Source of the DNA: Betaproteobacteria bacterium
Lineage (GTDB): Bacteria > Pseudomonadota > Gammaproteobacteria > Burkholderiales > SG8-41
DNA length: 64,000 nt
Direction: 5' to 3'
Assembly (NCBI GenBank): GCA_023266235.1
Contig: JAHFRL010000007.1
Span: 15,007 to 79,006, forward strand
In this document: positions 18,383 to 39,790 of the stretch, piece by piece
How the letters are laid out: every line of letters begins with the position of its first letter
Position numbering within the stretch: position 1 is the first letter of the stretch
Made by a program: the position numbers and the translations under genes
Notes under the pieces: model-generated
The model's input: the letters and a program-made list of their open reading frames with translations, nothing else
The model's database searches: none
What the model was told of the DNA's origin: nothing

Positions 18383-18455
18383 GGCGGCTCATCCCCTCAT
18401 CTGGCGCTCATACCAAAAACTGCTGTGACAAATCCCATGTCAATCTGCCGGCTGC

Positions 18456-19220: not shown

Positions 19221-19231
19221 CGTCTTGGTCG

Positions 19232-22475: not shown

Positions 22476-22496
22476 GGCAGTATCCCTGTAACCGTA

Positions 22497-23327
22497 TTAT
22501 CTGAACCAAGCCTTGAATTTGGCAAACCAGCCCGTCGGCGCCCCGAAGTCTTCAAGCACCCGCACCAGGATCACTGAAATGTTGTCGCGCCCGCCGCTGT
22601 CGTTGGCCTGCTGCACCAGCTGCTTTGCCGCCAGCGGCAGGTTCGCCTGCAGCGTGGCCAAGGTGGCGTGGATCTCATCATCCACGACCATATCGCTCAA
22701 CCCGTCCGAGCATAGCAGGTATATATCCCCCGGCTCCACATCATAGGTGTGAACTTCGGTCTCGACCTCGGGATCGATGCCGACCGCGCGCGTCACCAGA
22801 TTCTTGTTCTGCGAGTGGCGCGCCTGCTCTTTGCTTATCATGCCGCTGTCGATTTGTTCCTGCAACAGCGAGTGGTCGCGCGTGATCTGCTCGAACTCAT
22901 CCTGGCGCAGCCGATACAGGCGCGAGTCGCCAATGTGGCCGGTCGTCATGCGGTTGTCGTAAAACAACGCCACTACCAGGGTGGTGCCCATGCCCGCGTA
23001 TTGCGGCTGGCTTTGGGCGGCCTGATAAATCGCGGCATTGGCTTTGGCCGAATTCTCCTTGATCAGCTTGACTGCCAGCGGCTCGCCCGCAGAGCCGTTG
23101 ATTTCGTGCGGCTCGTGTGCTTCGAGCGCCCGCCTCATTTCGGCAGTCAGCATGGCCACCGCGATGCCGCTCGCGACTTCACCCGCATTGTAGCCGCCCA
23201 TGCCGTCGGCAAGCACCGCCAGGCCGATTTCGGCATCAGTTGCAATGCTGTCCTCGTTATGCGAGCGCACCATTCCGGGATCAGTGGCGGTTACAACTTC
23301 AAGCACGGTGCCGAGATTAGCCATCAT
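22497..23327 (-). CDS. PP2C-family Ser/Thr protein phosphatase
   Basis: MVRSHNEDS, LADGMGGYNAGEVAS and GGRDNISVILV. It starts 5 nt after the kinase stop. Confidence 0.9.
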   Translation of the reverse strand: MMANLGTVLEVVTATDPGMVRSHNEDSIATDAEIGLAVLADGMGGYNAGEVASGIAVAMLTAEMRRALEAHEPHEINGSAGEPLAVKLIKENSAKANAAIYQAAQSQPQYAGMGTTLVVALFYDNRMTTGHIGDSRLYRLRQDEFEQITRDHSLLQEQIDSGMISKEQARHSQNKNLVTRAVGIDPEVETEVHTYDVEPGDIYLLCSDGLSDMVVDDEIHATLATLQANLPLAAKQLVQQANDSGGRDNISVILVRVLEDFGAPTGWFAKFKAWFR

Positions 23328-23332
23328 GGTGA

Positions 23333-25912
23333 TTACAGCCCGATGTCGACCACGTCTTGCTTCGCCCCGGCGCCGCCCCCGCCCACGCCCGCTGCGCAGG
23401 CCTTGATCGCCTGCGCCATTTCCTCGCCGGTCTGGTAGCGCGCCTCGGGCTGCTTGGCCAGCGCCTTGTTGATGATATCAACCAGGCACGGCGGCAATTT
23501 GGCGTTGTAAGTCAGGATATCGACGTGCGGCTCGTTGGCGATCTTGAACATCAGCTGCGCCATCGAATCGCCCTGAAATGGCAGTTTTCCGCACGCGAGT
23601 TGATACAGCGTCACGCCGAGCGAAAAAAGGTCGGAGCGACCTTCGATTTTCTTGCCGGCGAGCTGCTCGGGCGACATGTAGCTCGGCGTACCGAGCACCA
23701 TGCCGGTCTTGGTCTTGGACGAATCGGTGATGCGCGCGATGCCGAAGTCAGTGACCTTGACGGTGTCGCTCTCGAGCTCGTACATGATGTTGGCGGGCTT
23801 GATGTCGCGGTGCACGACGCTGTTCGTGTGGGCGTAGGTCAACGCTTCGGCGACGCGCGCGATGATGCTCATCACTTTCGGCAGCGGCAGCAGGTTGTCC
23901 GGCTTGATGAACGGCGTGAGGTCCTTGCCTTTCAGGAACTCCATCGCGATGAACGCAAGATCGTGCTCTTCGCCGGCGTCGAAAATCGTAACAATATGGG
24001 GGTGGTTCAGGCGGCCGGCGGTTTCGGCCTCGCGGAAGAAGCGGTCCTTGACATCCTGCAGCTCGTCGGCCTCGAACTCCTGCGACAGCGCCATGGTCTT
24101 GATCGCCACCACGCGGCCGATTTTCGGGTCCTTGCCCAGATACACGACGCCCATCGCGCCCTTGCCGAGTTCTTTTTCGACCTGGTAGCGGCCGAGCATC
24201 GGTTTTTCGACGCCGCCACCGGGCATGATCACGGTGCCGCCGGGATGGCTGCCACCGCCGCCGAGTATGACGGTTTCCGACATCGCCTTGGCGCGTCCGA
24301 CCCGCTCCGCGATGTCCCTGAACTTCGGATTATTCTCGGCGATGTAGCGGAACGCATTTTCCGCTTTGTTGAACTGGCGCTTGCGCTCGAAATCGAGCGC
24401 CAGGTTATAAACCAGATCGAGCACCGAATCGTCGGGCGGCAGCTTGCGGAAATAGTCGAACGCCGTGTCGAGCTGACCCTGGCCCTGGTAGCCGAGGCCG
24501 AGCATGCGGTGGCTTTGCGCAAGGTCGACGTCCGAACGGGCCTTGCTTTTTTCGGTGACAATAAAATGCTTGGAGACGAGCGCTAAATGCCCGATCAGCA
24601 ACAACGTCGCCGGCAGCATGAGCTGTACCCAGATCGCGCTGGTCGTCATCAACACGAAATGCACGACTAGCAGAAGCACGAAAACTCCAGCCGAAATCAC
24701 CAGTGCCTGGGTTGCCTTAAGGCGCGGCAGCAGCGCAATCAGGTAGGCGGCGATCAATAAAAAAACTAGCAATTCGACCCAGTAAGCCCACGCTGGCGTG
24801 ACGAAAAAATGCTCGGAGAGGATAGAAGACACCGAGTGTGCAAGCACCAGCACGGGCGGCATCGCCGCAGAGACGGGGGTAACCGTCGCGCTGCCGAGAC
24901 CCGCGGCTGTGGGGCCGATCAGTACGATTTTGTTTTCGTACTTGCTGACCGGGATCTTGCCGTTGATCACATCATAGAAAGAGTCAATGGTAAATGCAGC
25001 GCGACCCTCGCGATCCTTGTAGAAATAGGTGTACATCCGGGTCAACGGGTCCGTCGTAATGTTCAGTTTTCCCAGCGTCACTTTTTCACCGGGCTGGATC
25101 TTGATGTCTTCCAGGGTCAGGTTGAGGCTTTTCGCCGCGATCATCATCGACAGAGACGGAAAAGTCTTGTCGAAATTGAGCAGCACCAAGGGTTCGGTGC
25201 GGGTGCCGCCATCAACGTCGGGCGTCGCATTGAGGTGGCCAAGAGCGGCGGCGGACTTGCCGATAATCTCGATAGGATAATCTACCCTTTTCGTGAGCAG
25301 CACGAATTCCTCCGCGCCTTTCGCGACTTTCGGCAGAGCGTTCTTGGCGACATACTCTGGCAATGGCTTGTCTGGATTGCCGCGCGGCTCGCCGAGTTCG
25401 AACAACATCATCGGCACGACGTTGCCGGCCCGCGTGAAACTGTCGGCAAGTTTGCGGTCGACGTTTAGTGTTTCCTCGGCCTCTTTAAGCACCGTGACAA
25501 ATGGCCCCATCGGACTGCTGGCCGCTACTCCGGCCTGATCGGCGGGCGCGCTGTTTATCGCGGCGAGATCGAGAAGCTTGGTGATATAAACGTAACCGGG
25601 GTCGACTTGAGGTTCGGAGAATAGAACGGTGTATGCGATAACCTTGGCTTTGGCAGCGGCCAGCGTGTCGGTCATCTTAGCAAGCACTTCGCGCGACCAC
25701 GGCCACCGACCGATCTTGTCGAGACTGTCGGCATCGATCGCAATGATCGCAACCTTGTCGGACGGTGTGCGTGACGTAGCGACGACGCCAAGGTCGTACG
25801 CCTTGCGCTCCAGACTCGGGATGAGGTCGCTCGCGCGGTTGAACAGCGCGACCACAAGGACAACGACGACCCCGAGAAACCAGTCGGATTTCCAAAAAGT
25901 CAAATTTTTCAT
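23333..25912 (-). CDS. CHASE2 sensor domain / Hanks-type Ser/Thr protein kinase
   Basis: N-terminal TM helix, CHASE2-like ~340 aa, TM helices, then a short TPR-like linker. The kinase core has LGKGAMGVVYLGKD, VVHRDIKPANIM, VTDFGIARI and GTPSYMSPEQ. Confidence 0.9.
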   Translation of the reverse strand: MKNLTFWKSDWFLGVVVVLVVALFNRASDLIPSLERKAYDLGVVATSRTPSDKVAIIAIDADSLDKIGRWPWSREVLAKMTDTLAAAKAKVIAYTVLFSEPQVDPGYVYITKLLDLAAINSAPADQAGVAASSPMGPFVTVLKEAEETLNVDRKLADSFTRAGNVVPMMLFELGEPRGNPDKPLPEYVAKNALPKVAKGAEEFVLLTKRVDYPIEIIGKSAAALGHLNATPDVDGGTRTEPLVLLNFDKTFPSLSMMIAAKSLNLTLEDIKIQPGEKVTLGKLNITTDPLTRMYTYFYKDREGRAAFTIDSFYDVINGKIPVSKYENKIVLIGPTAAGLGSATVTPVSAAMPPVLVLAHSVSSILSEHFFVTPAWAYWVELLVFLLIAAYLIALLPRLKATQALVISAGVFVLLLVVHFVLMTTSAIWVQLMLPATLLLIGHLALVSKHFIVTEKSKARSDVDLAQSHRMLGLGYQGQGQLDTAFDYFRKLPPDDSVLDLVYNLALDFERKRQFNKAENAFRYIAENNPKFRDIAERVGRAKAMSETVILGGGGSHPGGTVIMPGGGVEKPMLGRYQVEKELGKGAMGVVYLGKDPKIGRVVAIKTMALSQEFEADELQDVKDRFFREAETAGRLNHPHIVTIFDAGEEHDLAFIAMEFLKGKDLTPFIKPDNLLPLPKVMSIIARVAEALTYAHTNSVVHRDIKPANIMYELESDTVKVTDFGIARITDSSKTKTGMVLGTPSYMSPEQLAGKKIEGRSDLFSLGVTLYQLACGKLPFQGDSMAQLMFKIANEPHVDILTYNAKLPPCLVDIINKALAKQPEARYQTGEEMAQAIKACAAGVGGGGAGAKQDVVDIGL

Positions 25913-26238: not shown

Positions 26239-27171
26239 TCAGCCGCCGAGCACGCTGCCAGCCTTGATGCCGCCTGCCTGCGCCAGCTCCCCGCCGCTCA
26301 CCTTTTTGCCATCCCCGAACCTGGCCTTCAGCACTTCGATCAAGCCGCCTTGGGCCGTGATCTTGAAGCTTTGCGCCGTGACGTCAGTGACCTCGCCGAT
26401 CTTCCCGGGCACGTCCGCAAAACGCCGGAAAACGGCCTTGCGCGCGTCAAAAAGCTGTAACTTTTTGCCGCTGAGCGTCGTCCATGCGCCCGGCGCCGGG
26501 TTGCACCCCCGGATCAGGTTGTAGACATGGTCGATGGGCTTGGCCCAGTCTATCCGCGCCTCCCCGGCGCGGCACCAGCCCTCGTAACTCGCCTGCGACT
26601 CATCCTGCACCGTCTCCCGGTGTTTTCCCTTTAACACGAGATCGGCGGCCTCAAGCATGGCCTGTACGCCCAGCGGGAACAGGCGCTCGAAATAGACGGT
26701 GCCCAGCGTGTCGTCGGGGCTGATGGGCGTCTTCTTCTGCAGGATCACTGCGCCTTCATCCAGCCCGTCCGAGGGACGGAAAATGGTCAGGCCCGTCTCC
26801 GTGTCGCCTTTGATGATCGGCCAGTTGATCGAACTCGGGCCGCGATACTTCGGCAGCAGTGACGGGTGATACTGGATGGTGCCGTGTTTGGGTATGTTGA
26901 CGAATTCCTGCGGTGCGAACTGCAGCACGAAAGCCATGATGCCGATGTCGGCGTTAGCGTCCTGCATGGCCTGCGCCGCTTCCCGCGCCCGTAGCGACTT
27001 GAACTGGTGAACCTGCAGCCCCGTTTCCTGCGCCGCGAGACGCAACGCATCCGGCCGCGCGCCTTCCTTCTCGGGCGCGCAGAACACGGCTGCAACCTCG
27101 TCGCCGCGCGCGAGGAAGGCCTCGAACACGGCCTTGCCGTAGTCCTGCTGGCCGATGATTGCGATTTTCAT
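26239..27171 (-). CDS. stand-alone formyltransferase resembling the N-terminal (hydrolase/formyl-transfer) domain of 10-formyltetrahydrofolate dehydrogenase
   Basis: At 310 aa it matches the length I remember for that domain. MKIAIIGQQDYGKAVFEAFLARGDEVAAVFCAPEK, IQYHPSLLPKYRGPSSINW and SDGLDEGAVILQK align by eye to the ALDH1L1 N-terminal domain as I remember it (MKIAVIGQS..G..V.....GHEVVGVFT.PDK; YHPSLLPRHRGASAINW; DDGLDTGDLLLQK). A C-terminal Fmt-like subdomain is present. Confidence 0.75.
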   Translation of the reverse strand: MKIAIIGQQDYGKAVFEAFLARGDEVAAVFCAPEKEGARPDALRLAAQETGLQVHQFKSLRAREAAQAMQDANADIGIMAFVLQFAPQEFVNIPKHGTIQYHPSLLPKYRGPSSINWPIIKGDTETGLTIFRPSDGLDEGAVILQKKTPISPDDTLGTVYFERLFPLGVQAMLEAADLVLKGKHRETVQDESQASYEGWCRAGEARIDWAKPIDHVYNLIRGCNPAPGAWTTLSGKKLQLFDARKAVFRRFADVPGKIGEVTDVTAQSFKITAQGGLIEVLKARFGDGKKVSGGELAQAGGIKAGSVLGG

Positions 27172-27257
27172 GATTGTTACTTTCTTCGAAACAGGTGAGG
27201 CGGTAGTCGAAAGAGCAAATCAGCGCGTGAGTTCTGCGCCTCTCGCCTTACGGGCCG

Positions 27258-28529
27258 CTACGCGGCCTTCTTCGGCGGCGCGGAAAACGCGCCCGCGTTC
27301 CTCAACTTGACGATCTGCTCGTCGGCGTAGCCAAGCACCTCCCTGAGGATCTCGTCAGTGTGCTCGCCGAGGAGCGGGGAGCGCTCGATCCTGGCCGGCG
27401 AATCCGAAAGCTTGATCGGCATACCCACGTTCCACCATTTGCCGCGCTGCGGGTGGTCGAGTTCGACATACATCTCGCGCAGCCTGACGTGCTCGTCGTT
27501 GGCGAGGTCTTCCGTGGACATGATGGGGCCGCAAGGCACGTTGATCTCATTGAGAATGCCCATCAACTCGCGCTTGCCATGCTTCAGCGCAAACTCGCCG
27601 ATAATCTCCCACATGTCATTCTGGTATCTGCGACGGTTATCGATGGTGGCGAACTTCGGATCGGTCGCCAGATCGGGCAGGCCGAGCTCGGGCCCGATGC
27701 GCCTGGCAAGCGCGTCCCACACGGCTTCCTGGACAACGACGTAGATAAAATCGTTGGTCCCCCCCGGATTGCAGCGGATGGCATTGCCCAACTGGCCGCC
27801 ACCGGAGTCATTGCCGGCGCGCGGCACCGCCCCCATGCCCTGATGCGTGGCCACTGAGTATTCCGCCAGCGACTCGCGGATAAGACGCTGGTGATCGCGC
27901 CACTTGACCCGGCACAGGTTCATGATGCCGTCCATCATGGCGACCTCGACGTATTGCCCCTCGCCGGTGCGGTCGCGCTGGCGCAGCGCGGCGAGTAGCC
28001 CGATCGCCAGGTGAAGACCCGTTCCGGTATCTCCGATCTGCGCGCCAGCCACGAAAGGCGGACCGTCGGGAACACCAGTGGTGCTCATCGCGCCGCCCAT
28101 CGCCTGGGCCACGTTTTCATAGGCCTTGAAGTTGGCATAAGGTCCCGAAGACCCGAAGCCCTTGATGGAACCCATCACGATGCGCGGGTTGATTTCGTGC
28201 ACTTTCTCCCAGGCAAATCCGAAACGGTCGAGCACCCCGGGACCGAAGTTTTCCATGACGATGTCGCATTTCTTCAGCAGCTCGACGAACACGGCCTTGC
28301 CATCGGGCGACTTCATGTTGACCGTGATCGAGCGCTTGTTGCAATTGAGCATCGTAAAATAAAGGCTGTCCGCATTCGGCACGTCGCGCAGCTGGCCGCG
28401 CGTCGCATCGCCGACGGGCGGCTCCAGCTTGATCACGTCCGCCCCCATCCACGCGAGCAGTTGCGAGCAGGTTGGCCCCGCCTGCACGTGCGTCATGTCG
28501 AGTATTCGAATTCCTTTGAGTGCTTCCAT
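27258..28529 (-). CDS. frc: formyl-CoA:oxalate CoA-transferase (type III CoA-transferase)
   Basis: MEALKGIRILDMTHVQAGPTCSQLLAWMGADVIKLEPP, LYFTMLNCNKRSI and KAYENVAQAMGGAMSTTG align closely to E. coli YfdW / O. formigenes Frc as I remember them. ATG 28529 has GGAGA 5 nt upstream. Confidence 0.9.
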   Translation of the reverse strand: MEALKGIRILDMTHVQAGPTCSQLLAWMGADVIKLEPPVGDATRGQLRDVPNADSLYFTMLNCNKRSITVNMKSPDGKAVFVELLKKCDIVMENFGPGVLDRFGFAWEKVHEINPRIVMGSIKGFGSSGPYANFKAYENVAQAMGGAMSTTGVPDGPPFVAGAQIGDTGTGLHLAIGLLAALRQRDRTGEGQYVEVAMMDGIMNLCRVKWRDHQRLIRESLAEYSVATHQGMGAVPRAGNDSGGGQLGNAIRCNPGGTNDFIYVVVQEAVWDALARRIGPELGLPDLATDPKFATIDNRRRYQNDMWEIIGEFALKHGKRELMGILNEINVPCGPIMSTEDLANDEHVRLREMYVELDHPQRGKWWNVGMPIKLSDSPARIERSPLLGEHTDEILREVLGYADEQIVKLRNAGAFSAPPKKAA

Positions 28530-28590
28530 TCTGATCTCCAAAAATGCTTCGGCAGATAGATGGCTACCTGCTCTCGCTCAACTGTTTGAC

Positions 28591-30318
28591 TTATTTCTTT
28601 TTTGCGCTTTGCGGATTCAGGCTCGTGATGCGACCGCTTTCGGTGCCGGCGCTTTCATCGATCACGGCATTGATGAGCGTGGGCTTGCGCGAGCGGATGG
28701 CTTCTTCCATGGCCTTGCGCAGCTCCGCCGGGGTCGTGGCGTGCACGCCCACGCCACCGAAGGCTTCCATGAGCTTTTCATAGCGTGCATCCTTGACGAA
28801 CACCAAGGGTGCCGGATCGCGGCCACCGGTCGGATTGACTTCGTCGCCGCGGTAGACGCCGTTGTTGTTCAAGATCACCACGCAGACCGGCAGGTTGTAG
28901 CGGCAGATGGTCTCGACTTCCATGCCGGAGAAGCCGAAGGCGCTGTCGCCCTCGATCGCGATCACCGGCAGGCGGCTGACCACGGCGGCCGCGACGGCAA
29001 AGCCCATGCCGATGCCCATCACGCCCCAGGTGCCGACGTCCAGGCGCTTGCGCGGCTTGTACATGTCGACGATGCTGCGGGTGAAGTCGAGCGCGTTGGC
29101 GCCTTCGTTGACCAGGATGGCGTCCGGGTTGGCCTTGACGATGTCGCGCACCACGTTCAGCGCGCTGTGAAAATTCATCGGCGTCGGATTCTTGGCCAGG
29201 GTCTCGGCCATCTTGGCAACGTTCTTGTTCTTGCGCTCGGCGATGGCGTTCAGCCAGTCCGCCGGCGGCTTGGCCCAGTTGGAGCCGATGCCGGCAAGCA
29301 GCGCGGACACGCAGGAACAGATGTCGCCGACCACCGGGGCGTCGATGCGGACGTTGCTGTCCGCCTCCTGCGGCGAGATGTCGATCTGGATGAACTTCTG
29401 GCCGCCCCACGCCTTGGCGTCCTTGCCGCCCCAAGTCTTGCCCTTGCCATGCGAGAGCAGCCAGTTCAGGCGGGCGCCGACCAGCATCACCACGTCAGCC
29501 TCGGGCAGCACATAGGAGCGCGCGGCGGCAGCGGACTGCTCGTGCGTGTCCGGCAGCAGGCCCTTGGCCATGGCCATGGGCAGGTAGGGGATGCCGGTCT
29601 TCTCGACCAGGGCGCGAATGTCCGCGTCCGCCTGGGCGTAAGCGGCACCCTTGCCCAGCACGATGAGCGGACGCTTGGCGCTCTTGAGCAGCTCGAGCGC
29701 GCGCTGCACCGCATCTTGGGCCGGGATCTGGCGCGGCGCCGGATCGACCACCTTGATCAGCGACTTCTTGCCCGCTTCTGCATCCATGGTCTGCGGGAAG
29801 AGCTTGGCCGGCAGGTCGAGGTAGACGCCGCCCGGGCGGCCGGAGACGGCGGCACGGATGGCGCGCGCGATGCCCACGCCGATGTCCTCGGCGTGCAGCA
29901 CGCGGAAGCCGGCCTTGCACAGCGGCTTGGCGATGGCCAACTGGTCCATCTCCTCGTAGTCACCCTGCTGCAGGTCGACGATCTCGCGCTCGCTGGAGCC
30001 GCTGATGAGGATCATCGGGAAGCAGTTGGTGGTGGCGTTGGCCAGTGCGGTCAGGCCGTTGAGGAAGCCGGGCGCGGACACCGTCAGGCAGATGCCCGGC
30101 TTTTGCGTCATGAAGCCGGCGATGGCGGCGGCATTGCCGGCGTTCTGCTCATGGCGGAACGAAATCACGCGCATGCCTGCGGCCTGTGCCTTGCGGGCAA
30201 AGTCGGTGATCGGGATACCGGGCAGACCGAAGATCGTGTCGATGCCGTTGAGTTTGAGGGCATCGATGACCAGGTGAAAGCCGTCGGTCACTTCTTGTGA
30301 TTGTGCATCGGTTGTCAT
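28591..30318 (-). CDS. oxc: oxalyl-CoA decarboxylase (ThDP-dependent)
   Basis: [52 protein letters not shown] and the ThDP motif region [22 protein letters not shown]...NNNG. It sits directly upstream of frc. Confidence 0.9.
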
Positions 30319-30417
30319 GCTGAGATGCCTCGCGTTCTCGCCGTCGTATCCATCGAAATCTCCTAGTGAGAGAAGTTTTTCGTTCCGCCCGGAATGACGC
30401 TTTTTTGAAGGGTTTCA

Positions 30418-30459
30418 AATATATACAGCCGGCTGCGACCCGGCCTTGACCACGGTCAA
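30418..30459 (-). promoter_or_regulatory. FNR/FixK-type box plus -10 element, candidate class II promoter of oxc
   Basis: Read on the minus strand: TTGACcgtgGTCAA (30459-30446), 22 nt, then TATATT (30423-30418). The box centre falls about 41.5 nt before the implied TSS near 30411. The same box sits over the -35 region of the divergent regulator gene (TATACT at 30475-30480). Confidence 0.6.
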
Positions 30460-30465
30460 TTTTTC

Positions 30466-31155
30466 ATGTTTTGGTATACTGGTGTTTGCATGCCCTGCCT
30501 TGCCGCAGTGCCTGAAACAGCGCTGTTTCACAAACCGATGACATCCCTCGCCCGCCACGCGGAGGCCAAGATCGTGCGGCTGCAACTGCGCCAGAACCTG
30601 GTGCTGCGGCACATGACGCGCGAGCAATGGGACGAGCTCGAGCCGCAGCTCGACATCACCGATTACGCGAAGGGAGCGCTGCTCGAAAACCAGGGCGATT
30701 CGTCGATGCGGCAGTATTTCATCCTCGACGGCATACTCAAGCGCGTGGTATCGAACCGGGAGGGCCGCGAAATGATCCTGCGCTTCGCCGCCGAAACCGA
30801 GATCGACACCAGTTACGCCGCGTGGCGCCTCAAAACCACCATCCCATACTCGATCCGCGCGGTAACGCGCGTGCGCACCGCGCAGTTGTCGATGGAAGAG
30901 TGGGTCGCGTTCGTGGAACGCCATCCAGCGGTCAAGAGCCAGTTCGAGTTCGGGGTAATGAAACTGATGAGCGAGGTGATGGCGCATACCATCACGCTGC
31001 ACCTGCTCGATGCGCCCGGCCGCATCGCGCGCTTCATGCGCAAGCACTCAGCGCTGGTCGAGCGCCTGCCGAAAAAAGAGCTTGCCTCCTACCTCAACCT
31101 GTCGCCGGAAACCCTGTCGCGCCTCAAGCGCCGCGGCAAAATCGACCTGCAATAA
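30466..31155 (+). CDS. Crp/Fnr-family transcriptional regulator (FNR-like DNA-recognition helix, no FNR cysteine cluster evident)
   Basis: The cNMP-binding-like fold has ALLENQGDSSMRQYFILDGILKRVVSNREGREMIL. The C-terminal HTH is LASYLNLSPETLSRLKRRG, which contains the E--SR motif that FNR uses to read TTGAT half-sites. The start is uncertain: ATG 30466, 30490 or 30538, none with a good SD. Confidence 0.8.
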   Translation: MFWYTGVCMPCLAAVPETALFHKPMTSLARHAEAKIVRLQLRQNLVLRHMTREQWDELEPQLDITDYAKGALLENQGDSSMRQYFILDGILKRVVSNREGREMILRFAAETEIDTSYAAWRLKTTIPYSIRAVTRVRTAQLSMEEWVAFVERHPAVKSQFEFGVMKLMSEVMAHTITLHLLDAPGRIARFMRKHSALVERLPKKELASYLNLSPETLSRLKRRGKIDLQ

Positions 31156-31245: not shown

Positions 31246-32256
31246 CTATCCTTGGGCGAACGGAATCACGCCTGGGACAAGCCATTTCTCCCACATCTCG
31301 TCAATCTTCGCCTGGAAGTACGCGATATCTTCCTCGGTAAAGTGCGCAAAACGCCCCTGCCTCATCAAATACTCGCCAACGGGCTTGCGCTTGACCGCTC
31401 CACTCGCGATATGCTTGCTCTTGCCGTACATCTTCACCTTGCGGTCTTCGACCTCGTAGAGGGGCCAGATGCCGGTCTCGATCGCAAGCTCACCCAGCTC
31501 ATGGGAGAATTTCGGATCGTAGTCCCAGCCCTTGGGGCAAGGATCGAGCGAGTGAATGAACGTCGGCCCGCCGATGGTCAACGCCCGGCGCACCTTGTTC
31601 ATCGTGTCGATGGCGTTCCCGGCGCAAACGGTCGCGACATACCTGCAGTCGGGATGGCCCGCAGCCAACATCGCCGCGGTGTTCTTTTTCCAGCGTTTGT
31701 GCATGATGCGGTGCTTCTTGCCCGGCGGACTAAAAGTGGAGTTCGCACCGTACGGAGACGAACCCGACACCTGGATGTCGGTGTTGGCATACGACTCGTT
31801 GTCGTACATGAAGATCAACATGTTGTACTCGGTGTGCTGCAGGGCCGCCGAAATGGCCGACAGCCCCATGTCGGCGCCGCCGCCATCACCGCAAAAGGCG
31901 ATGACGTTGATCGGCTCCTCCTCCATCTTGCCCTTGCGCATCATCGCCTTCAGAGCGGCGGCGGTACCAGTGGCAGCGGAGCCTGCGGATCCGAGCTGCG
32001 TGTGCATCCATGGCACCACCCACGGGGTGGAGTAATAGGTGGTGTTGGCCACATACATGCAGCCGGTGGCGCCAAGGACGATCGTGCGCGGCCCGGCCGC
32101 CTTGATCATGAGCTTCATGACCAGCGCCGACTCACACCCCTGGCAGGTGCGGTGACCCGAGGTGAAATACTCCTCGCGAGCGACCTTCTTGATGCCCTTC
32201 CAGGGTTCGAGAACCTGGGTTGAGAAATCCTTCAAAGCTATGCTTGATGTTTCCAT
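31246..32256 (-). CDS. 2-oxoacid:ferredoxin oxidoreductase beta subunit (ThDP-binding), OOR-like complex
   Basis: GHRTCQGCESALVMKL (proximal cluster cysteines) and FCGDGGGADMGLSAI...NESYANT (ThDP GDG...N motif). It starts 5 nt after the alpha stop. Confidence 0.85.
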   Translation of the reverse strand: METSSIALKDFSTQVLEPWKGIKKVAREEYFTSGHRTCQGCESALVMKLMIKAAGPRTIVLGATGCMYVANTTYYSTPWVVPWMHTQLGSAGSAATGTAAALKAMMRKGKMEEEPINVIAFCGDGGGADMGLSAISAALQHTEYNMLIFMYDNESYANTDIQVSGSSPYGANSTFSPPGKKHRIMHKRWKKNTAAMLAAGHPDCRYVATVCAGNAIDTMNKVRRALTIGGPTFIHSLDPCPKGWDYDPKFSHELGELAIETGIWPLYEVEDRKVKMYGKSKHIASGAVKRKPVGEYLMRQGRFAHFTEEDIAYFQAKIDEMWEKWLVPGVIPFAQG

Positions 32257-32261
32257 GATGG

Positions 32262-33518
32262 TTACTCCCGCACGCCGATCCAGTGGGTATCTCGATAGTC
32301 GATGTCGCCGCCGCTTGCGGCGGCAAACACCTTGCCGGTTATTTCAATGACGTTATTGGTGCTCAACTCGCGTCCACCCAAACCGGCGATGAATGAAACG
32401 ATCGTGGGCCGGTGCACCGCTGGGTAGAGGGCGGAGCGCAGCTCGTTGGCTAGCACGCCGCTGAAGAAGGTGGAGCCGAAACTGTAATCGCGATCGATCA
32501 CGCCTACCGCCTTTACCCCGGATAGCGCGTCCTGCAGCTCGATGGTGGGGAACGGGCGGAACCACCTGACACGGACGAAGCCGACCTTCTTGCCCTGCTC
32601 CCGCATCTTGCGGACGGCGACTTTCACCGGCATTGCGAGCGTGCCCATTCCCACCAGGGCAACCTCGGCGTCCTCCATCATGTAGCGCTCGATGAAGGGC
32701 TCGCCGCCGCGTCCGAACTTGGCGTTGAAATCACCGTAAGCTTCGATGAGGACATCACGGGCACGGCGCGCCGCCATGTCATTTTGTTTGCGTATCTCCA
32801 TCACCCAATCCTCGTTCGCCTGGGGGGCGATGGTGATCGGGTTGTTTGGATGCAACTGCTTATCTCCCCGGTCATAGCGCGGCAGGAAGCTGTTGACCAG
32901 CTCCTGGCTGGGAACGTCGACGATCGACTGTGAGTGGGTGAGGAACGCACCGTCGCAGCTGATCGCACAGGGAAGAGAGACGCGCTTGTCTTCGGCCACG
33001 CGGTAGGCGATCAGCGCCGTGTCGAACGCCTCTTGCGCGGTCGACACCCAGGTTAGCAACCAGCCGAGATCCCGCACCGCGAGCGCATCGTTGTGCTCGA
33101 CCCCGAAGGCGCCGGGATCGTCGAGTGCCCTGTTGCCGACCATGGCAACCATCGGCAGACGCAGCCCGGCGGTGACCGCCAGCGCCTCAAAGGCGTAGAA
33201 CCAACCGACGCCACTGGAGCCACAGAAAACCCGTGCCCCTACGGCCGACGCGTGCTTCACAATCTCGAACTGCGAGTGCTCGCTCTCGGCTACCATGTAT
33301 TCGCAGTCGAAGTCGCCGTCGGCGATCATCTTCGATACGTACTGCATAACGGTGTCGTAGGGCCGGATCGGGTACGCCGTGATCACGTCGACGTCGGCGA
33401 GTCGAACTGCATGCGCGACCGCTTCACTGCCGCTGATCAGCTCCTGCGACCCACGCCCCGGTGCGCGGGCGGTCGTGACATCAACTTTTTTGGCAACAAC
33501 TCCTTCAGGAGGATTCAT
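32262..33518 (-). CDS. 2-oxoacid:ferredoxin oxidoreductase alpha subunit, OOR-like
   Basis: ELISGSEAVAHAVRLADVDVITAYPIRPYD, where Arg replaces the usual Thr of YPITP, and VGNRALDDPGAFGVEHND. ATG 33518 overlaps the upstream gene by 14 nt. Confidence 0.85.
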   Translation of the reverse strand: MNPPEGVVAKKVDVTTARAPGRGSQELISGSEAVAHAVRLADVDVITAYPIRPYDTVMQYVSKMIADGDFDCEYMVAESEHSQFEIVKHASAVGARVFCGSSGVGWFYAFEALAVTAGLRLPMVAMVGNRALDDPGAFGVEHNDALAVRDLGWLLTWVSTAQEAFDTALIAYRVAEDKRVSLPCAISCDGAFLTHSQSIVDVPSQELVNSFLPRYDRGDKQLHPNNPITIAPQANEDWVMEIRKQNDMAARRARDVLIEAYGDFNAKFGRGGEPFIERYMMEDAEVALVGMGTLAMPVKVAVRKMREQGKKVGFVRVRWFRPFPTIELQDALSGVKAVGVIDRDYSFGSTFFSGVLANELRSALYPAVHRPTIVSFIAGLGGRELSTNNVIEITGKVFAAASGGDIDYRDTHWIGVRE

Positions 33519-34647
33519 TGGCTATCTCCCCGGCATATTGGCCCACGTGGTGAAATCCATGGCTACGGGGGGGCGGTTCCGAAATCTTTTCCGACAACCA
33601 CGCAGCGTAGCTTTTCTTGTCCTTGGTCCACATCTCCCATTGGCTCCCGTTATCCTTGAAGGCTTCCTCGTTAACCATGGTGATGCACTTGTCTACCGGG
33701 CAGACGGCCTCGCACACGCCACAGCCACAGCAGGCTTCCATGTTGGCGTCGTAGTGGCCGTCGGGCGTGATGTCGAAGCAGGTATCCGGGCACTGTAGCC
33801 AACAGATTTTGCACTCGGTGCAGGTGTCGAAGTTGACCACCGGCCGCATGGTGCGCGTTGAGAATTTCTTGAAAGTGGGGTTGCGTGCGGGGACATAGCC
33901 GCCATCCCGGCCGGGAACCTTTTGCTCCCCGGTCATGCCGCGAATCACCAGGCCCTCTTCCATCGTCTTCCAGCCTGGCAAGTCAAACTTGTAGGGGACC
34001 GTAGCGTTGCCATTATCAGCGCCAATCGCGGTCGACGCGACCAGAGCGTAGGCCTTCCTCGCCGAAGCTTCCTTTGCGGCGTTCTTCTTCGGCTCGTTAA
34101 TCGCCGCCACGACGGATTCCAGGCTGACGATGTGCGGGGCGACCTTGGCCAGCGCCCCCAGCAGGCGCACATCGGTGTGATCGTCCTTGTAGACCCACAA
34201 CCCCGAGAAGCTGGCGGCGGCCTTGACGATGGCGAGATTGTAGGGCTTGCCCTTGCGATGGATGTCGCCGATCAGGCTCTCCGACGAACGCGTCGATGGA
34301 ACCAACAGCGTGCCGCCCTCTTTGAGCAGCTTGTTGATAGGCTGCAAGCCATACCAAGCCCAGGACTCGACACCTTTGCAGAGGGTGTCGTCAGCGGCAA
34401 TGGTCACGTCGTTGTTGTCGGGCTCGTACCTCGACAGGTTCTCCTCCATCTCTTCTTCGCTATCGGCAACGACGGCGAACTGCTTGGCCGGGATGCCGTT
34501 GCGTTCAGGAGAATCGCTGTAGCGGCCGAAGGCGATACCGATCTTCCCTTCCTTTTTTGCAGCAAAGACAATCCCGCGGCAGATGTTCTTGGCCAAACTC
34601 TTCTGAAAAATGCCGCGGTAGACGACCTCCACGGAACCGGTGCTCAT
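33505..34647 (-). CDS. 2-oxoacid:ferredoxin oxidoreductase gamma subunit fused to a 2x[4Fe-4S] ferredoxin (delta) domain
   Basis: ATG 34647 (MSTGSVEVVYRGIFQKSLAKNI) is preceded by AGGAGG. The C-terminus has CTECKICWLQCPDTC and CCGCGVCEAVCPVDKC. The longer track ORF (to 34836) would overlap the FprA-like gene. Confidence 0.8.
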   Translation of the reverse strand: MSTGSVEVVYRGIFQKSLAKNICRGIVFAAKKEGKIGIAFGRYSDSPERNGIPAKQFAVVADSEEEMEENLSRYEPDNNDVTIAADDTLCKGVESWAWYGLQPINKLLKEGGTLLVPSTRSSESLIGDIHRKGKPYNLAIVKAAASFSGLWVYKDDHTDVRLLGALAKVAPHIVSLESVVAAINEPKKNAAKEASARKAYALVASTAIGADNGNATVPYKFDLPGWKTMEEGLVIRGMTGEQKVPGRDGGYVPARNPTFKKFSTRTMRPVVNFDTCTECKICWLQCPDTCFDITPDGHYDANMEACCGCGVCEAVCPVDKCITMVNEEAFKDNGSQWEMWTKDKKSYAAWLSEKISEPPPRSHGFHHVGQYAGEIANESS

Positions 34648-34822
34648 TGCACATACCTCCTGGTGGCCTTGCGATGGGAAATAACAGCATATCATGTCGG
34701 AATTCTTCCGGGCAAATGCCAGCTGTCCGCCGCAACCGTATTTATACCCGGGACTTTTCGACACTGCGGCGGGGGCATCTGCAGCCACCGGGGACGGTGC
34801 AATACCCATCACGTTCGCGTGT

Positions 34823-36205
34823 CTATTCAGAGTCAACGATTACCTTCAGCATCCCTTCCACCGAGGTGAACTTCTCCCTCGGTTTGCCGGCGGCTGCGCC
34901 GCGCCGCACCTCCGCCGCATCGATCTTCTGCCAGTCCGCGTAGCTCACCACGCGGACCGTGCGGTTTTGCAACAAAGCCGTCAGTCCGCCAGCACCGCTT
35001 TTCGCGCCGGCGGGAAGATGCGGCAAGTCGGCCAGCAGTGACGCCACCGTGGCTACGCTATCGGCGCGATTGGTGCCGATGATTCCCGTCGGACCACGCT
35101 TGATCCAGCCCGTCACATATAGACCCGGAACGACGTTCTGCCCATCGATTATGCGACCGTCCTGGTTGGGAATGACACCGCGACGATCATCGAAAGGAAC
35201 GCCTGGAATGGCAGCACCCCGATAGCCGATGCTGCGAAACAGCACGCCGCATGCAAGCTCCTCTACCTCGCCAGTCTCGCGTGCGACCTGCTGCGAAGGC
35301 TCCCCCTCCAGACAATTTCGCACCAGCACCACTCGTTCAAGCCTTCCTTCGCCTTTGAGTGCCTTCGGGCTCTTGAGGAACTGGATGTGGCAGCGCCGGT
35401 GCCGCGTGGGCGCCGGCCGGGCGGCGAACGCCTGCAGTACTTCATAGCTCTTGCTACTGGCCCTGTTGTGTCTGTCCGCGAGCTCTTCACGGCTCGCCGG
35501 ATTCAGCTCGAGATCGTCCGCCACCAAGATTGGGTCGCAGTCCGCCAATTCCCCCAGCTCCCTGAGTTCCTGATGAGTGAACTTCGCTTGCGCCGGACCG
35601 CGGCGTCCAATCATATAAACATCGCGAATCCTGCTCTGCGCCAAGACCTCGAGCGCGTGGCCGGCGATGTCCGTGTGCCTGAGCTCGTCCACCGTCTTGC
35701 AGAGAATCCGGCAGACATCGACAGCCACATTCCCTTGTCCGATGACCACGGCGGTCTCATGCGACAGGTCGAACACCAGATCGCGATAGTCAGGGTGGCC
35801 GTTGTACCACCCGACAAACTCCGTAGCCGCATGGCTGCCTGCCAGATGCTCCCCCGGGATGCCGAGCTTCCGGTCGGTCTCCGCGCCACAAGCAAATATG
35901 ACGGCGTGGTAGCAACCCTTCAGTTCCTCCACGCTGATATCGCGCCCCACCGTGACGTTGCCCAAGAATCGAAATTGCGGGGACTCGGCAATCTGCTGAT
36001 AGACACGTATGGGTTCCTTGAGCTTCGGGTGATCCGGAGCTACGCCGCTGCGCACCAGCCCAAAGGGCGAGGCAAGGCGTTCAAACATGTCGACAAGGAC
36101 CGTTTGTTTCGATTCGAGCAACGCCTCGGCGGCGTAAAAGCCGCTCGGTCCACTGCCGACAATTGCCGCGCGCAGCGGGTTCTGCGCCGTGCCGAGGTTA
36201 CTCAT
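34823..36205 (-). CDS. FprA / adrenodoxin-reductase-type NADPH:ferredoxin oxidoreductase
   Basis: AIVGSGPSGFYAAEALL, GLVRSGVAPDHPKLK, VIGQGNVAVDVCRIL and GWIKRGPTGIIGTN align along their length to M. tuberculosis FprA as I remember it. Confidence 0.85.
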   Translation of the reverse strand: MSNLGTAQNPLRAAIVGSGPSGFYAAEALLESKQTVLVDMFERLASPFGLVRSGVAPDHPKLKEPIRVYQQIAESPQFRFLGNVTVGRDISVEELKGCYHAVIFACGAETDRKLGIPGEHLAGSHAATEFVGWYNGHPDYRDLVFDLSHETAVVIGQGNVAVDVCRILCKTVDELRHTDIAGHALEVLAQSRIRDVYMIGRRGPAQAKFTHQELRELGELADCDPILVADDLELNPASREELADRHNRASSKSYEVLQAFAARPAPTRHRRCHIQFLKSPKALKGEGRLERVVLVRNCLEGEPSQQVARETGEVEELACGVLFRSIGYRGAAIPGVPFDDRRGVIPNQDGRIIDGQNVVPGLYVTGWIKRGPTGIIGTNRADSVATVASLLADLPHLPAGAKSGAGGLTALLQNRTVRVVSYADWQKIDAAEVRRGAAAGKPREKFTSVEGMLKVIVDSE

Positions 36206-36264
36206 GCTGGGCGGTTTCCCGTACCGGGAAGGCCATGGAACCGCAAAGCCCGAGGCGAGTTGCC

Positions 36265-36570
36265 CTACTCAAACCCTAATTGCTTTTTCCGCTCTTCTGC
36301 GCCTGGAAGCGGATCTTGTTTCTTGCGTATCACCGGCAGTCGGGGTGCGCGTTCGGCATTGATTTCAATCCAGCGCTGCTTTTCCTCCGGGATCGGGTCC
36401 TCGCAAATCGCTTCGACCGGACACAGGGGTATGCAGGCACCGCAATCGATGCATACTTCCGGGTCGATATAAAGCATCTCGTCGTCGCCATGAAAACAGG
36501 CAACCGGACATACCGTGACACAGTCGGTGAAACGGCAGCGTTTACAATTATCGGTTACGACGGTCGTCAT
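36265..36570 (-). CDS. fdxA: 7Fe-type ferredoxin (FdxA/Azotobacter FdI-like)
   Basis: MTTVVTDNCKRCRFTDCVTVCPVACFHGDDEMLYIDPEVCIDCGACIPLCPVEAI. ATG 36570 is preceded by GGGAGG. Confidence 0.85.
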   Translation of the reverse strand: MTTVVTDNCKRCRFTDCVTVCPVACFHGDDEMLYIDPEVCIDCGACIPLCPVEAICEDPIPEEKQRWIEINAERAPRLPVIRKKQDPLPGAEERKKQLGFE

Positions 36571-36610
36571 TTTATCCTCCCGCTTGGATGAAAGGCTGAA
36601 TAAACGGTAG

Positions 36611-38104
36611 CTATACTCCGCGCAGCTTGGCAATTGCCATCGAGATCAGCGGCCAGAACAACAGCACCAGCGCCAGCGCGGTGATGCTGCCGACCAGCCG
36701 GTTCGAAAAGAAAATCGCCATGTCGCCCTGCGCCATCAGCATCGACTGGCGGAACGAATCCTCGGCGCGGTCGCCGAGCACCAAGGCCAGCACCAGCGGC
36801 GCCAGCGGGTAATCGAGCTTCTTGAACACGTAACCGACCACGCCGAACATCAGCATGTACCAGATGTCGAGCATCGCACTGTGCACGGTGTAAGCGCCGA
36901 TCGCGCAAATCACGATGATGATCGGCGCGATGATCGAGAACGGCACGCGCAGGATCGCGGCGAACAGCGGCACGCAGGTGAGCACGATGATGAGGCCGGC
37001 GATGTTGCCGAGGTACATGCTCGCGATCAGGCCCCACACGAAATCCTTCTGCTCAACGAACAGCAGCGGACCCGGCTGCAGGCCCCAGATCAAAAGCCCC
37101 CCGAGCAGCACCGCCGCGGTCGGCGAACCGGGGATGCCGAGCGCGAGCATCGGCAACAAGGCGGAAGTGCCGGCGGCGTGCGCGGCGGTTTCCGGCGCCA
37201 CCACGCCTTCGAGCTGACCGCTGCCGAACTTGTCGCCGTCGCGTGACATGCGCTTGGCGATGCCGTAGCTCATGAACGACGCCGGCGTCGCGCCACCCGG
37301 CGTGATCCCCATCCAGCAGCCGATCAGGCAGCTGCGCAACGAAGTCAGCCAGTACTGCGGCAGCTTTTTCCACGTTTCCAGTACGACCTTGGGATTGATG
37401 GTGGCGGTCTTGCCGGTGAACGACAACCCTTCTTCCATCGTCAGCAGGATCTCGCCGATGCCGAACAGACCGATCACCGCGATCAGGAAATCGAAGCCGC
37501 GCATCAGGTCGGTGAAACCGAAAATCAGCCGCAACTGGCCGGTGACGGTGTCCATGCCGACCGCGGCGAGCGCAAAACCGAGCATCATCGCCGCGAGCGT
37601 CTTGAACGGAGAGCCCTTGCCCATGCCGATGAAGCTGCAGAACGTGAGCAAGTAGACCGAGAAGAATTCGGGCGGCCCGAACTGCAGCGCGAATTTGGCG
37701 ACCAGCGGTGCGAGAAAGGTGATCATCACCACCGCGACTAACGCACCGATGAATGAAGAGGTGAACGCGCCGGTCAGCGCTTCGCCGGCGCGCCCCTGCT
37801 GCGCCATCGGATAGCCGTCGAAGGTGGTCGCGACAGACCACGGCTCGCCCGGAATGTTGAACAGCACCGAGGTGATCGCGCCGCCGAACAGCGCGCCCCA
37901 GTAGATGCACGACAGCATGATAATCGCCGAAGTCGGCGGCATCGTGAACGTGAGCGGCAGCAGGATCGCGACGCCGTTGGCGCCGCCGAGACCGGGCAGC
38001 ACGCCGATGATCACGCCGAGCACGATGCCGATCATCATCAACATCAGGTTGAACGGCGTCAGCACCACCGCAAACCCGTGAAATAATGCGTTGACTTCTT
38101 CCAA
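36611..38104 (-). CDS. tctA: tripartite tricarboxylate transporter, large permease TctA
   Basis: 497 aa and polytopic. FHGFAVVLTPFNLMLMMIGIVLGVIIGVLPGLGG is typical of a TctA N-terminus. TTG start at 38104. Confidence 0.85.
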   Translation of the reverse strand: MEEVNALFHGFAVVLTPFNLMLMMIGIVLGVIIGVLPGLGGANGVAILLPLTFTMPPTSAIIMLSCIYWGALFGGAITSVLFNIPGEPWSVATTFDGYPMAQQGRAGEALTGAFTSSFIGALVAVVMITFLAPLVAKFALQFGPPEFFSVYLLTFCSFIGMGKGSPFKTLAAMMLGFALAAVGMDTVTGQLRLIFGFTDLMRGFDFLIAVIGLFGIGEILLTMEEGLSFTGKTATINPKVVLETWKKLPQYWLTSLRSCLIGCWMGITPGGATPASFMSYGIAKRMSRDGDKFGSGQLEGVVAPETAAHAAGTSALLPMLALGIPGSPTAAVLLGGLLIWGLQPGPLLFVEQKDFVWGLIASMYLGNIAGLIIVLTCVPLFAAILRVPFSIIAPIIIVICAIGAYTVHSAMLDIWYMLMFGVVGYVFKKLDYPLAPLVLALVLGDRAEDSFRQSMLMAQGDMAIFFSNRLVGSITALALVLLFWPLISMAIAKLRGV

Positions 38105-38146
38105 TTCCCCCCCTGCCTGACGGATCGCGCCGCGCCTGTCCTGCGA

Positions 38147-38668
38147 TCAATAACCGAGGAAGCGCAGCGGCTCGAGGGAGCCTTTGAACAGCGGCACCTT
38201 GAACCACACTTCGAACATCAGGAACAAACTGACATTGACGGACAAACCGACGGCAACGCTTTTGAACCACGTGTACTTGCCGAGCCATACCATGAACACG
38301 GTGATATAGATCGCGGAGGCGACGTACAGGCCCACATACTGCACGCCGATCACGTAGACCGCCGCCGGGATCAGCACCGTCAGCACCAGCTTGAACGGCC
38401 CCCAAGTGACGAACAATTCGCCATCCTCGGGTTTGGTCAATATCGCCTGCGCCAGGGTCACCAGGCTTGCAATGCAGATCAGAACACCGATGTAGAACGG
38501 AAAGTACCCCGACTGCGGGCCGTCGCTGCCCCATTTCGAGCCCAGCCGGTAGCTGTCGAACGCCACGATCGCGCCCAAGGCAAATACCAGCAATGCAACG
38601 ATGATATCCGCCGTGCGCATCGAGATTCCGGCGCGATCACCGGCGCCGGATTGCTGATTTTCATCCAT
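38147..38668 (-). CDS. tctB: tripartite tricarboxylate transporter, small permease TctB
   Basis: 173 aa with four predicted TM segments, located between tctC and tctA. Confidence 0.75.
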   Translation of the reverse strand: MDENQQSGAGDRAGISMRTADIIVALLVFALGAIVAFDSYRLGSKWGSDGPQSGYFPFYIGVLICIASLVTLAQAILTKPEDGELFVTWGPFKLVLTVLIPAAVYVIGVQYVGLYVASAIYITVFMVWLGKYTWFKSVAVGLSVNVSLFLMFEVWFKVPLFKGSLEPLRFLGY

Positions 38669-38767
38669 CGCAATGATTGAGCTTGGCTGTCACGGCGGCG
38701 CGCGTTACGTCGCGCACGCCAAAGCGAAGACCGCGCGGATCACAACGCACGGCCTTCGCCGGGATCA

Positions 38768-39790
38768 TTATGGTTTGGCCAGGAACCCCGCTTCACGCAT
38801 CAATTCGCGGTGGGTGTTTTCGGCTTTCTCGACCCACTTCGCATATTCGGCGCCGCTCATGAAGGTGGTGTTGAACGCGCCGTCTTCCATGAACTTCTTC
38901 CATTCCGGGGTCTCGCGCACTTTCTTGAACAGGCCCACGTAATAATCGACCTGTTCCTTGGTCACGCCGCCGGACATGAAAATGCCGCGCAGCATCACAT
39001 AATCCATCGGCACCCCGGATTCTTTGCAGGTCGGAATGTCGTACCACGACATGGTGTCGGTGACCTTGTTCTTGTACGGCATGCGCGTGTCGTCAAACAC
39101 GCACAGCGGCCGCAGCTTGCCGGCACGCCACTGCGCCACCGCCTCGATCGGATTGTTGACAGTCGAGTCGACATGCTTGCCGACGAGCTGCACCGCGACG
39201 TCGCCGCCGCCCTTGAACGGCACATAGATAAACTTCACGCCGACGGCTTTCTCGATCGCGACGGTTATGATCTGGTCTTCCTGCTTCGAGCCGGTGCCGG
39301 CCATCTTGAACTTGTTGGGTCCGCCCGCCTTCACCGCGTCGAGATACTCCTTCGCGCTCTTGTACGGCGTTTCGGCATTGACCCACAACACGAACTGGTC
39401 GAGCGCCAGCATCGCCACCGGCGTCAGGTCCTTCCAGTTGAACGGCACGCCGGTTGCCAGCGGCGTGGTGAACAGGTTGGAAAGCGTGATGATGATTTTA
39501 TGCGGTTCGCCTTTCGATTCCTTGACGGCGAGAAAGCCTTCCGCGCCCGCGCCGCCTGATTTGTTGACCACGATCAGGGGCTGTTTCATCAGGTTGTTCT
39601 TGGAAATCACGCCCTGCAGCAAACGCGCCATCTGGTCGGCGCCGCCGCCGGTGCCGGCAGGGACCACGAACTCGACCGGCTTGGTCGGTTCCCAGTCGGC
39701 GGCGGACGCCGCTGGAACCGCCACGGCAAAAGCTCCCGCGCTCAGCGCGCATAGCGTGCGACGCAGCATCAATGCTGAATAATTATACAT
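38768..39790 (-). CDS. tctC: tripartite tricarboxylate transporter substrate-binding protein (TctC/Bug family)
   Basis: Signal peptide, then KPVEFVVPAGTGGGADQMAR. ATG 39790 has AGGAGG upstream. Confidence 0.85.
   Translation of the reverse strand: MYNYSALMLRRTLCALSAGAFAVAVPAASAADWEPTKPVEFVVPAGTGGGADQMARLLQGVISKNNLMKQPLIVVNKSGGAGAEGFLAVKESKGEPHKIIITLSNLFTTPLATGVPFNWKDLTPVAMLALDQFVLWVNAETPYKSAKEYLDAVKAGGPNKFKMAGTGSKQEDQIITVAIEKAVGVKFIYVPFKGGGDVAVQLVGKHVDSTVNNPIEAVAQWRAGKLRPLCVFDDTRMPYKNKVTDTMSWYDIPTCKESGVPMDYVMLRGIFMSGGVTKEQVDYYVGLFKKVRETPEWKKFMEDGAFNTTFMSGAEYAKWVEKAENTHRELMREAGFLAKP

Follow-up and report, generated by a model that had tools for sequence, protein, structure and literature searches.

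The window, a 64,000-nucleotide (nt) stretch of contig JAHFRL010000007.1 from Betaproteobacteria bacterium (assembly GCA_023266235.1), encodes a Crp/Fnr-family regulator divergent from oxc, whose product is oxalyl-coenzyme A (CoA) decarboxylase. We consider it quite probable that this regulator serves an oxalate/formate regulon as its dedicated class II activator and that its effector is a metabolite of the pathway. The sequence, its conservation, the promoter geometry, and the predicted protein fold were observed, and four copies of one operator in the window together appear to define the regulon. An earlier note, made from the sequence alone, had proposed an FNR-type Crp/Fnr regulator facing a perfect TTGAC-N4-GTCAA box at class II distance from the oxc promoter. 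The regulator gene and the elements of its divergent promoter region are as follows:

30538-31155, plus strand: Crp/Fnr-family regulator, 205 amino acids (aa), supported by Pfam, a conserved start, an AlphaFold2 (AF2) model, and Foldseek
30446-30459: operator box 1, TTGACCACGGTCAA, common to the divergent oxc and regulator promoters
30423 to 30418, minus strand: oxc -10-like hexamer TATATT, separated from box 1 by a 22-nt spacer (30424-30445)
30472-30480, plus strand: candidate extended -10 of the regulator gene, TGgTATACT
30405-30418: second TTGA-N6-TCAA palindrome, TTGAAGGGTTTCAA, which overlaps the implied start and the final base of the oxc -10

The gap between oxc and the regulator gene is 219 nt long and contains box 1, whose sequence and coordinates were confirmed. 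Exact matches to TTGAC-N4-GTCAA number 3 in the 64 kb (at 30446, 43066, and 54087) versus 0.01 expected, TTGA-N6-TCAA occurs 6 times versus 0.56 expected, and a fourth, near-perfect copy of the box lies at 39896. The TATATT on the oxc strand was also found exactly 22 nt from box 1, as the earlier note had it; the implied oxc start would lie near 30411, about 7 nt past the hexamer, which puts the center of box 1 at -41.5. All four boxes are followed after exactly 22 nt by a -10-like hexamer, and each stands ahead of a minus-strand oxalate/formate operon. No sigma-70 -35/-10 pair was detectable in the oxc-regulator gap, as expected if the oxc promoter is activator dependent, and the class II reading is suggested by the fixed 22- to 23-nt phase of box and -10 together with the missing -35. 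A search against Rfam identified no RNA family across the whole window and hence no known riboswitch in the oxc leader. The remaining operators and the four target operons are the following:

39896-39909: operator box 2, TTGATTGTGGTCAA in promoter orientation, 22 nt, then GATGAT (39868-39873)
43066-43079: operator box 3, TTGACCGCAGTCAA, 22 nt, then TATATT (43038-43043) on the fhs strand
54087-54100: operator box 4, TTGACCGCAGTCAA, 22 nt, then TAAGTT (54059-54064) on the sucC strand
26239-30318, minus strand: target operon 1, oxc-frc-fmt-like, from NCBIfam/Pfam matches and synteny
28591-30318, minus strand: oxc, NCBIfam oxalyl-CoA decarboxylase model, 1023 bits
27258-28541, minus strand: frc, formyl-CoA transferase model, 579 bits
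26239-27171, minus strand: Fmt/ArnA-like formyltransferase, Formyl_trans_N and C matches, below the Fmt equivalog cut-off
31246-39790, minus strand: target operon 2, tctCBA, ferredoxin, gltD-like, and 2-oxoacid:ferredoxin oxidoreductase genes
38768-39790, minus strand: tctC
38147-38668, minus strand: tctB
36611-38104, minus strand: tctA
36265-36570, minus strand: ferredoxin, missing from the simple open reading frame (ORF) map
34823-36205, minus strand: GltD-like flavoprotein
31246-34836, minus strand: 2-oxoacid:ferredoxin oxidoreductase delta/gamma, alpha, and beta subunits
41283-42959, minus strand: target 3, fhs (formate--tetrahydrofolate ligase), NCBIfam, 927 bits
47086-53997, minus strand: target operon 4, sucCD-fdsGB-fdsA, with the same gene order in related loci L086-L090
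52825-53997, minus strand: sucC-like
51944-52822, minus strand: sucD-like
50013-51770, minus strand: NAD-formate dehydrogenase genes fdsGB
47086-49908, minus strand: fdsA

To this set we compared related loci, for which one genome per GTDB species was scanned. This gave 80 loci whose regulators are 72-91% identical; apart from Pelomicrobium, almost all of them come from metagenome-assembled genomes (MAGs) of uncultured Betaproteobacteria/Burkholderiales. A TTGA-N6-TCAA box was identified 66-178 nt upstream of the regulator ATG in 80 out of 80 loci. The regulator was divergent from oxc in 47 loci, and in 22 loci frc took the divergent position, oxc lay behind the regulator, and the gap between regulator and oxc held a second box. 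The remaining 11 had no oxc in the first analysis, with several of these running off the contig and a few encoding, in place of Oxc, an enzyme dependent on thiamine diphosphate (ThDP) that resembles Oxc and 2-hydroxyacyl-CoA lyase (HACL).

The distance from the box to a TAnnnT hexamer was 22-23 nt at 70 of 70 oxc, 24 of 24 frc, 17 of 17 fhs, and 34 of 43 tctC sites. The fhs box was kept in 16 related loci, all with this spacer, and the tctC box was present in 42 of the 58 loci that hold a tctC start. Boxes ahead of sucC were checked separately, using SucC homologues on regulator-bearing contigs (L086-L090); all 5 further loci carry TTGACTGCGGTCAA, 22 nt, and TAAGTT or TAACTT, with diverged spacers, which makes 6 of 6 with the window and 117 of 117 for the oxc, frc, fhs, and sucC sites together. 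At the oxc promoters, information content peaks at the box and at the -10, with 0.1-0.5 bit per column in the spacer. The class II distance to the oxc -10 is thus supported by comparative evidence, the box and its spacing being kept in 80 out of 80 orthologous loci.

Perfect boxes numbered 116 in the 1.11 Mb of the 80 loci, versus approximately 0.5 expected from base composition, and 113 of them lay at most 400 nt upstream of regulator, oxc, frc, tctC, or fhs starts. A promoter-oriented matrix built from 155 sites is asymmetric, reading TTGA(C/T)-N3-GGTCAA, and box position 9, which was unused in site selection, is G in 152 of these sites. In 4 Pelomicrobium-type loci (L019, L028, L032, and L058), the divergent gene encodes a ThDP enzyme of 564-573 aa, approximately 26% identical to Oxc, with PRK05858 and 2-hydroxyacyl-CoA lyase models as best matches; the box, frc, tctC, and fhs are kept there, and this branch may have a different enzyme under control.

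More distant members of the family, approximately 40-57% identical to the window regulator, were examined in their genomic context. In Ferrovum, the regulator adjoins a ThDP enzyme, an fmt-like gene, a major facilitator superfamily transporter, and fds genes, with boxes 22 nt from -10-like hexamers. An alphaproteobacterial MAG has the regulator divergent from oxc-frc-frc-fdsB-fdsA, with TTGATCAAAGTCAA 23 nt from TACGAT.

The boxes could instead serve a global oxygen- or nitric oxide (NO)-responsive regulator of the FNR/ANR, FixK, or Dnr type that is encoded elsewhere, leaving another or a minor role to the local regulator and placing the oxalate genes under anaerobic control. TTGA-N6-TCAA is a generic half-site pair of FNR, FixK, and Dnr, and target operon 2 holds an oxygen-sensitive enzyme type, the 2-oxoacid:ferredoxin oxidoreductase with its ferredoxin. 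We nevertheless regard such control as unlikely, since box and local regulator occur together in all 80 loci and in three gene arrangements, and this association persists in Ferrovum and the alphaproteobacterium. Further, the sites follow a TTGAC..GGTCAA consensus, whose proximal half-site is extended, rather than TTGAT-N4-ATCAA, of which no perfect copy was identified in the window, and every good box in the 64 kb precedes oxalate/formate genes. The regulator is the only Crp-like ORF in the window.

A second alternative keeps the local regulator on the boxes and has it act mainly as a repressor over the -35 region, released by oxalate or a derivative. The box spans -48 to -35, where some Crp/Fnr proteins repress, and at the promoter of the regulator itself, box 1 is centered at about -34.5, which is typical of repression. 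However, the target promoters have no recognizable -35 hexamer 16-18 nt from the -10 and should therefore be weak without an activator, and the strict 22- to 23-nt phasing is needed for class II activation and unnecessary for simple occlusion. General repression of the targets by the regulator thus seems improbable to us, and activation remains our preferred reading of the target promoters.

The regulator's own promoter is a separate matter. The earlier note had box 1 overlapping the -35 region of this candidate promoter and saw scope for autoregulation, which holds for the window and its closest relatives and not for the family as a whole. In the window, TGgTATACT begins 13 nt after box 1 on the plus strand, with TG at 30472-30473 and TATACT (30475-30480) 15 nt past the box, and ttttggtatact at this candidate -10 is kept in the closest loci. 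In the family at large, anything from 11 to more than 100 nt separates the box from the nearest regulator-side -10-like element, so that autoregulation is not conserved. The regulator probably represses its own promoter in this sub-lineage; the conserved relation is that of the box to the catabolic promoters and not to the regulator's promoter.

The palindrome at 30405-30418 is kept, exactly or loosely, in loci with a TATATT-type promoter (exactly, as TTGAGGGGTTTCAA, in L004, L007, L009, and L013) and is absent from loci with a TATGAT-type promoter. This palindrome may act as a second operator, for repression, or may be no more than a conserved initial transcribed sequence. Two other candidates were rejected as operators. 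The near-box TTGACCGCAATCAG at 39828-39841 lies 37 nt ahead of the ATG in what is predicted to be the tctC leader; it lacks a suitably spaced -10 and occurs in no related locus, so that it looks like a local duplication or a chance match, and TTGATTTCAATCCA at 36359 lies inside the ferredoxin gene.

Several genes of the target operons add detail to the predicted pathway. Target operon 2 was taken as one operon on the basis of shared strand and short gaps. Its oxidoreductase has oxalate oxidoreductase subunits as best NCBIfam matches, below the equivalog cut-offs, and the genes at 31246-36570 may form an optional second, CoA-independent route of oxalate oxidation under the tctC operator. The ferredoxin, GltD-like, and three-subunit oxidoreductase genes sit between the regulator and tctA, and this set was found in 1 of the 80 related loci (L026). 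The fmt-like gene, third in the oxc-frc operon, is kept in 57 related loci and lies beside the ThDP enzyme in Ferrovum too; that its product transfers the formyl group of formyl-CoA is speculation. The SucCD-type ADP-forming CoA ligase scores as a succinate-CoA ligase and shares an operon with the NAD-formate dehydrogenase, an association kept in L086-L090. This placement suggests a role in supplying the CoA donor for oxalate activation.

A gene for a TerC/YjbE-family membrane protein lies between fhs and the tctC promoter:

40393-41100, minus strand: TerC/YjbE-family membrane protein, syntenic in 40 loci

NCBIfam labels this family riboswitch-associated, and no riboswitch was found in the window by Rfam.

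The listed ORF of the regulator, 30466-31155, terminates in ...NLSPETLSRLKRRGKIDLQ and had been given a start upstream of 30538. We corrected the start to ATG 30538, as the equivalent ATG is used by 80 of 80 orthologues; database homologues are mostly 202-205 aa long. The N-terminal extension containing GVCMPC was rejected as part of the protein because of the conserved start codon and because the candidate -10 lies inside it, and it is not conserved as coding sequence. The 205-aa regulator contains no cysteine, and the same is true of 29 of 37 close homologues. The suggestion that the sensor domain lacks the FNR cysteine cluster (three N-terminal and one central cysteine for [4Fe-4S]) was thus borne out; with the extension and its two cysteines untranslated, an FNR-type Fe-S sensor is excluded.

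The Pfam cNMP_binding domain (PF00027) was matched at 31.3 bits versus a cut-off of 27.5, and the HTH_Crp_2 match was below its cut-off (19.6 versus 27). The AF2 model, built on a diverse 67-sequence alignment, reached a predicted local distance difference test score (pLDDT) of 93.3 and a predicted TM-score of 0.88; a first model from 37 near-identical sequences (pLDDT 66, spurious helices in the beta-roll) was discarded. The model comprises a beta-roll (residues 39-118), a long dimerization helix (130-156), and a helix-turn-helix (HTH; 179-185/190-198), and the N-terminal cNMP-type beta-roll, long helix, and HTH place the protein in the Crp/Fnr superfamily. The chain stops 7 residues beyond the recognition helix, PETLSRLKRR, and therefore lacks the usual terminal wing strands. 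Over the whole chain, Foldseek gave TM-scores of 0.7-0.8 at 16-22% identity to GlxR, Mycobacterium tuberculosis CRP, Escherichia coli CRP, and Aliivibrio fischeri FNR. The closest solved relative by sequence is PDB 3DN7 (E 1.4e-9), with CRP and DNR as marginal matches; a phmmer search with the regulator did not detect FNR at E<=1, and a PDB search with the HTH segment only returned nothing useful for alignment with FNR or FixK.

Within the recognition helix, E191, T192, L193, and R195 are invariant across the family, and S194 is present in at least 90% of sequences. The ETLSR helix would support recognition of TTGA. The FNR-type recognition helix of the earlier note stands in part, with E-x-x-S-R present (PETLSR) and a TTGA-N6-TCAA operator, and in part not, as the helix is generic and carries no clade signature. 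An exhaustive HMMER search against 1.84 billion cluster representatives retrieved only 47 clusters with E<=1e-30 and 169 with E<=1e-10, and the regulator clade is compact and stands apart in sequence. Scores were obtained for more than 8000 database relatives, and the regulator-bearing lineage is very abundant in metagenomes.

The positions of G71, E72, R82, and S83 of CRP are occupied by T, S, I, and P in the regulator (Y and S for the last two if shifted by one), so that the phosphate-binding-cassette residues of CRP were not found. A nearly invariant family motif, ETSYAAWR...PYS, replaces the cyclic AMP (cAMP)-contact residues; in a homologue approximately 52% identical to the window regulator, P0271 (L083), the pocket motif reads ETCYAAWS. 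With neither cAMP-contact residues nor cysteines, the signal should be neither canonically bound cAMP nor oxygen sensed by an Fe-S cluster.

A signal of another kind could come from a signaling cluster directly downstream of the oxc-frc-fmt-like operon, either as a cyclic nucleotide held in a noncanonical pocket (ETSYAAWR...PYS) or through control by phosphorylation, with the DNA side of the model unchanged. The cluster (14326-25912) has the following genes:

23333-25912, minus strand: CHASE2-Ser/Thr kinase
22497-23327, minus strand: PP2C
21738-22475, minus strand: FHA protein
19232-21529, minus strand: CHASE2-adenylate/guanylate cyclase
18456-19220, minus strand: class II cAMP-phosphodiesterase-like metallo-beta-lactamase protein
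16001-18382, minus strand: GAF-MshEN-T2SSE ATPase
14326-15984, minus strand: GAF-HD protein

Synteny of the kinase, PP2C, FHA, and cyclase genes extends to more than 40 of the 80 related loci, and the sensor domain of the regulator has a cNMP-type fold. If the signal did arise here, an extracellular cue perceived by CHASE2 would switch oxalate/formate catabolism in abundant uncultured Burkholderiales. We hold this to be quite improbable, given the replaced CRP cassette residues and the Ferrovum and alphaproteobacterial loci, which keep the regulator, the box, and the oxalate genes without the cluster. Moreover, no operator box was identified ahead of the cluster, and the kinase/cyclase genes were rejected as regulon members because none precedes the kinase gene.

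Under our preferred reading, a dedicated activator tuned to the pathway, the ETLSR helices of the dimeric regulator would bind the palindrome TTGA(C/T)-N3-GGTCAA, which would stand in for the -35 at four promoters, its center approximately 41.5-42.5 bp upstream of the predicted start. RNA polymerase would be recruited by the dimer on the box, through class II activation, and box 1, lying over the extended -10 promoter of the regulator, would dampen synthesis of the regulator in this lineage. The signal is most likely a pathway metabolite, that is, oxalate, oxalyl-CoA, formyl-CoA, or formate.

Several points weigh against this reading. The comparison covered regulator neighborhoods only, in 20-kb pieces; elsewhere, the box could also occur at classical FNR/ANR targets or be shared by a second Crp/Fnr protein. 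At tctC, the -10 elements are weak, and a box within one mismatch is missing from 16 of 58 starts. Very distant short Crp-like proteins have the E--SR helix too, so that it is generic and does not on its own make the regulator FNR-type. P0271 has nitrate/nitrite assimilation genes as neighbors, and no TTGA-N6-TCAA box was found within 8 kb of it, so the wider clade is not uniformly tied to oxalate. Finally, we infer from sequence, geometry, and fold that the regulator binds, where transcription starts, in which direction regulation runs, and what the effector is.

In soils, oxalate from plants and fungi makes up a major flux of carbon. Regulation of the marker genes oxc and frc was described as understudied in a 2024 review (PMC13409138). 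Full-text literature searches retrieved no description of a dedicated bacterial oxalate regulator or of an oxalate-specific Crp/Fnr regulator. What is new here is the family member, the regulon, and the likely effector class; the proposed mechanism is textbook. The analysis yields a candidate regulator, a defined 14-bp operator, and a four-operon regulon whose predicted functions are uptake, decarboxylation of oxalyl-CoA, and oxidation and assimilation of formate, together with an oxalate-oxidoreductase-like enzyme. If the reading is true, it would explain the induction of oxalotrophy in environmental bacteria, give the Crp/Fnr family a class of effector new to it, and offer the regulator and its -35-less promoter as parts for an oxalate or formate biosensor.

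Among known systems, FNR is a class II activator at TTGAT-N4-ATCAA, with the helix residues E209, S212, and R213. Like FNR of E. coli and A. fischeri, the regulator has the same overall fold (Foldseek TM approximately 0.79 to A. fischeri FNR), an E-T-x-S-R helix, and TTGA-N6-TCAA sites whose predicted center lies near -41.5 at promoters without a -35; the comparison of the helices draws on textbook knowledge. Unlike FNR, it has no cysteine and hence no [4Fe-4S] oxygen sensor, its C-terminus is shorter, its box prefers C/G at positions 5/10 with an extended GGTCAA proximal half, and its predicted regulon is local and metabolic. FixK2, Dnr, and NnrR govern denitrification and respiration under microoxic conditions, with FixLJ, haem-NO, or redox as the input. 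They are likewise Crp/Fnr proteins free of a cysteine cluster that activate from FNR-like boxes, and DNR of Pseudomonas aeruginosa is a weak sequence match (3dkw, E 1.4e-4); in contrast, the regulator described here is linked to oxalate/formate genes and is remotely related to them in sequence.

CRP, GlxR, and M. tuberculosis CRP are the best structural matches (TM 0.80-0.82) and share the cNMP_binding domain, and CRP is a paradigm of class II activation. The regulator misses the cAMP cassette residues, is only 16-22% identical, and has the half-site TTGAC instead of TGTGA. PDB 3DN7, a 194-aa "cyclic nucleotide binding regulatory protein" from structural genomics, is similarly short and ends right after the recognition helix (LASYLGFTPEYLSEIRKK); it is approximately 25% identical to the regulator and uncharacterized. 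The operators of NtcA (GTA-N8-TAC), CooA (TGTCA-N6-CGACA), and CprK (TTAAT-N4-ACTAA) differ from TTGA(C/T)-N3-GGTCAA, and no close sequence relationship of the regulator to NtcA, HbaR, or CprK was detectable. NtcA (2-oxoglutarate), HbaR (4-hydroxybenzoate), and CprK (chlorophenols) are metabolite-sensing Crp/Fnr members that activate dedicated catabolic or assimilatory regulons, and they provide the precedent for an organic acid or aromatic compound as the effector bound by a Crp/Fnr beta-roll.

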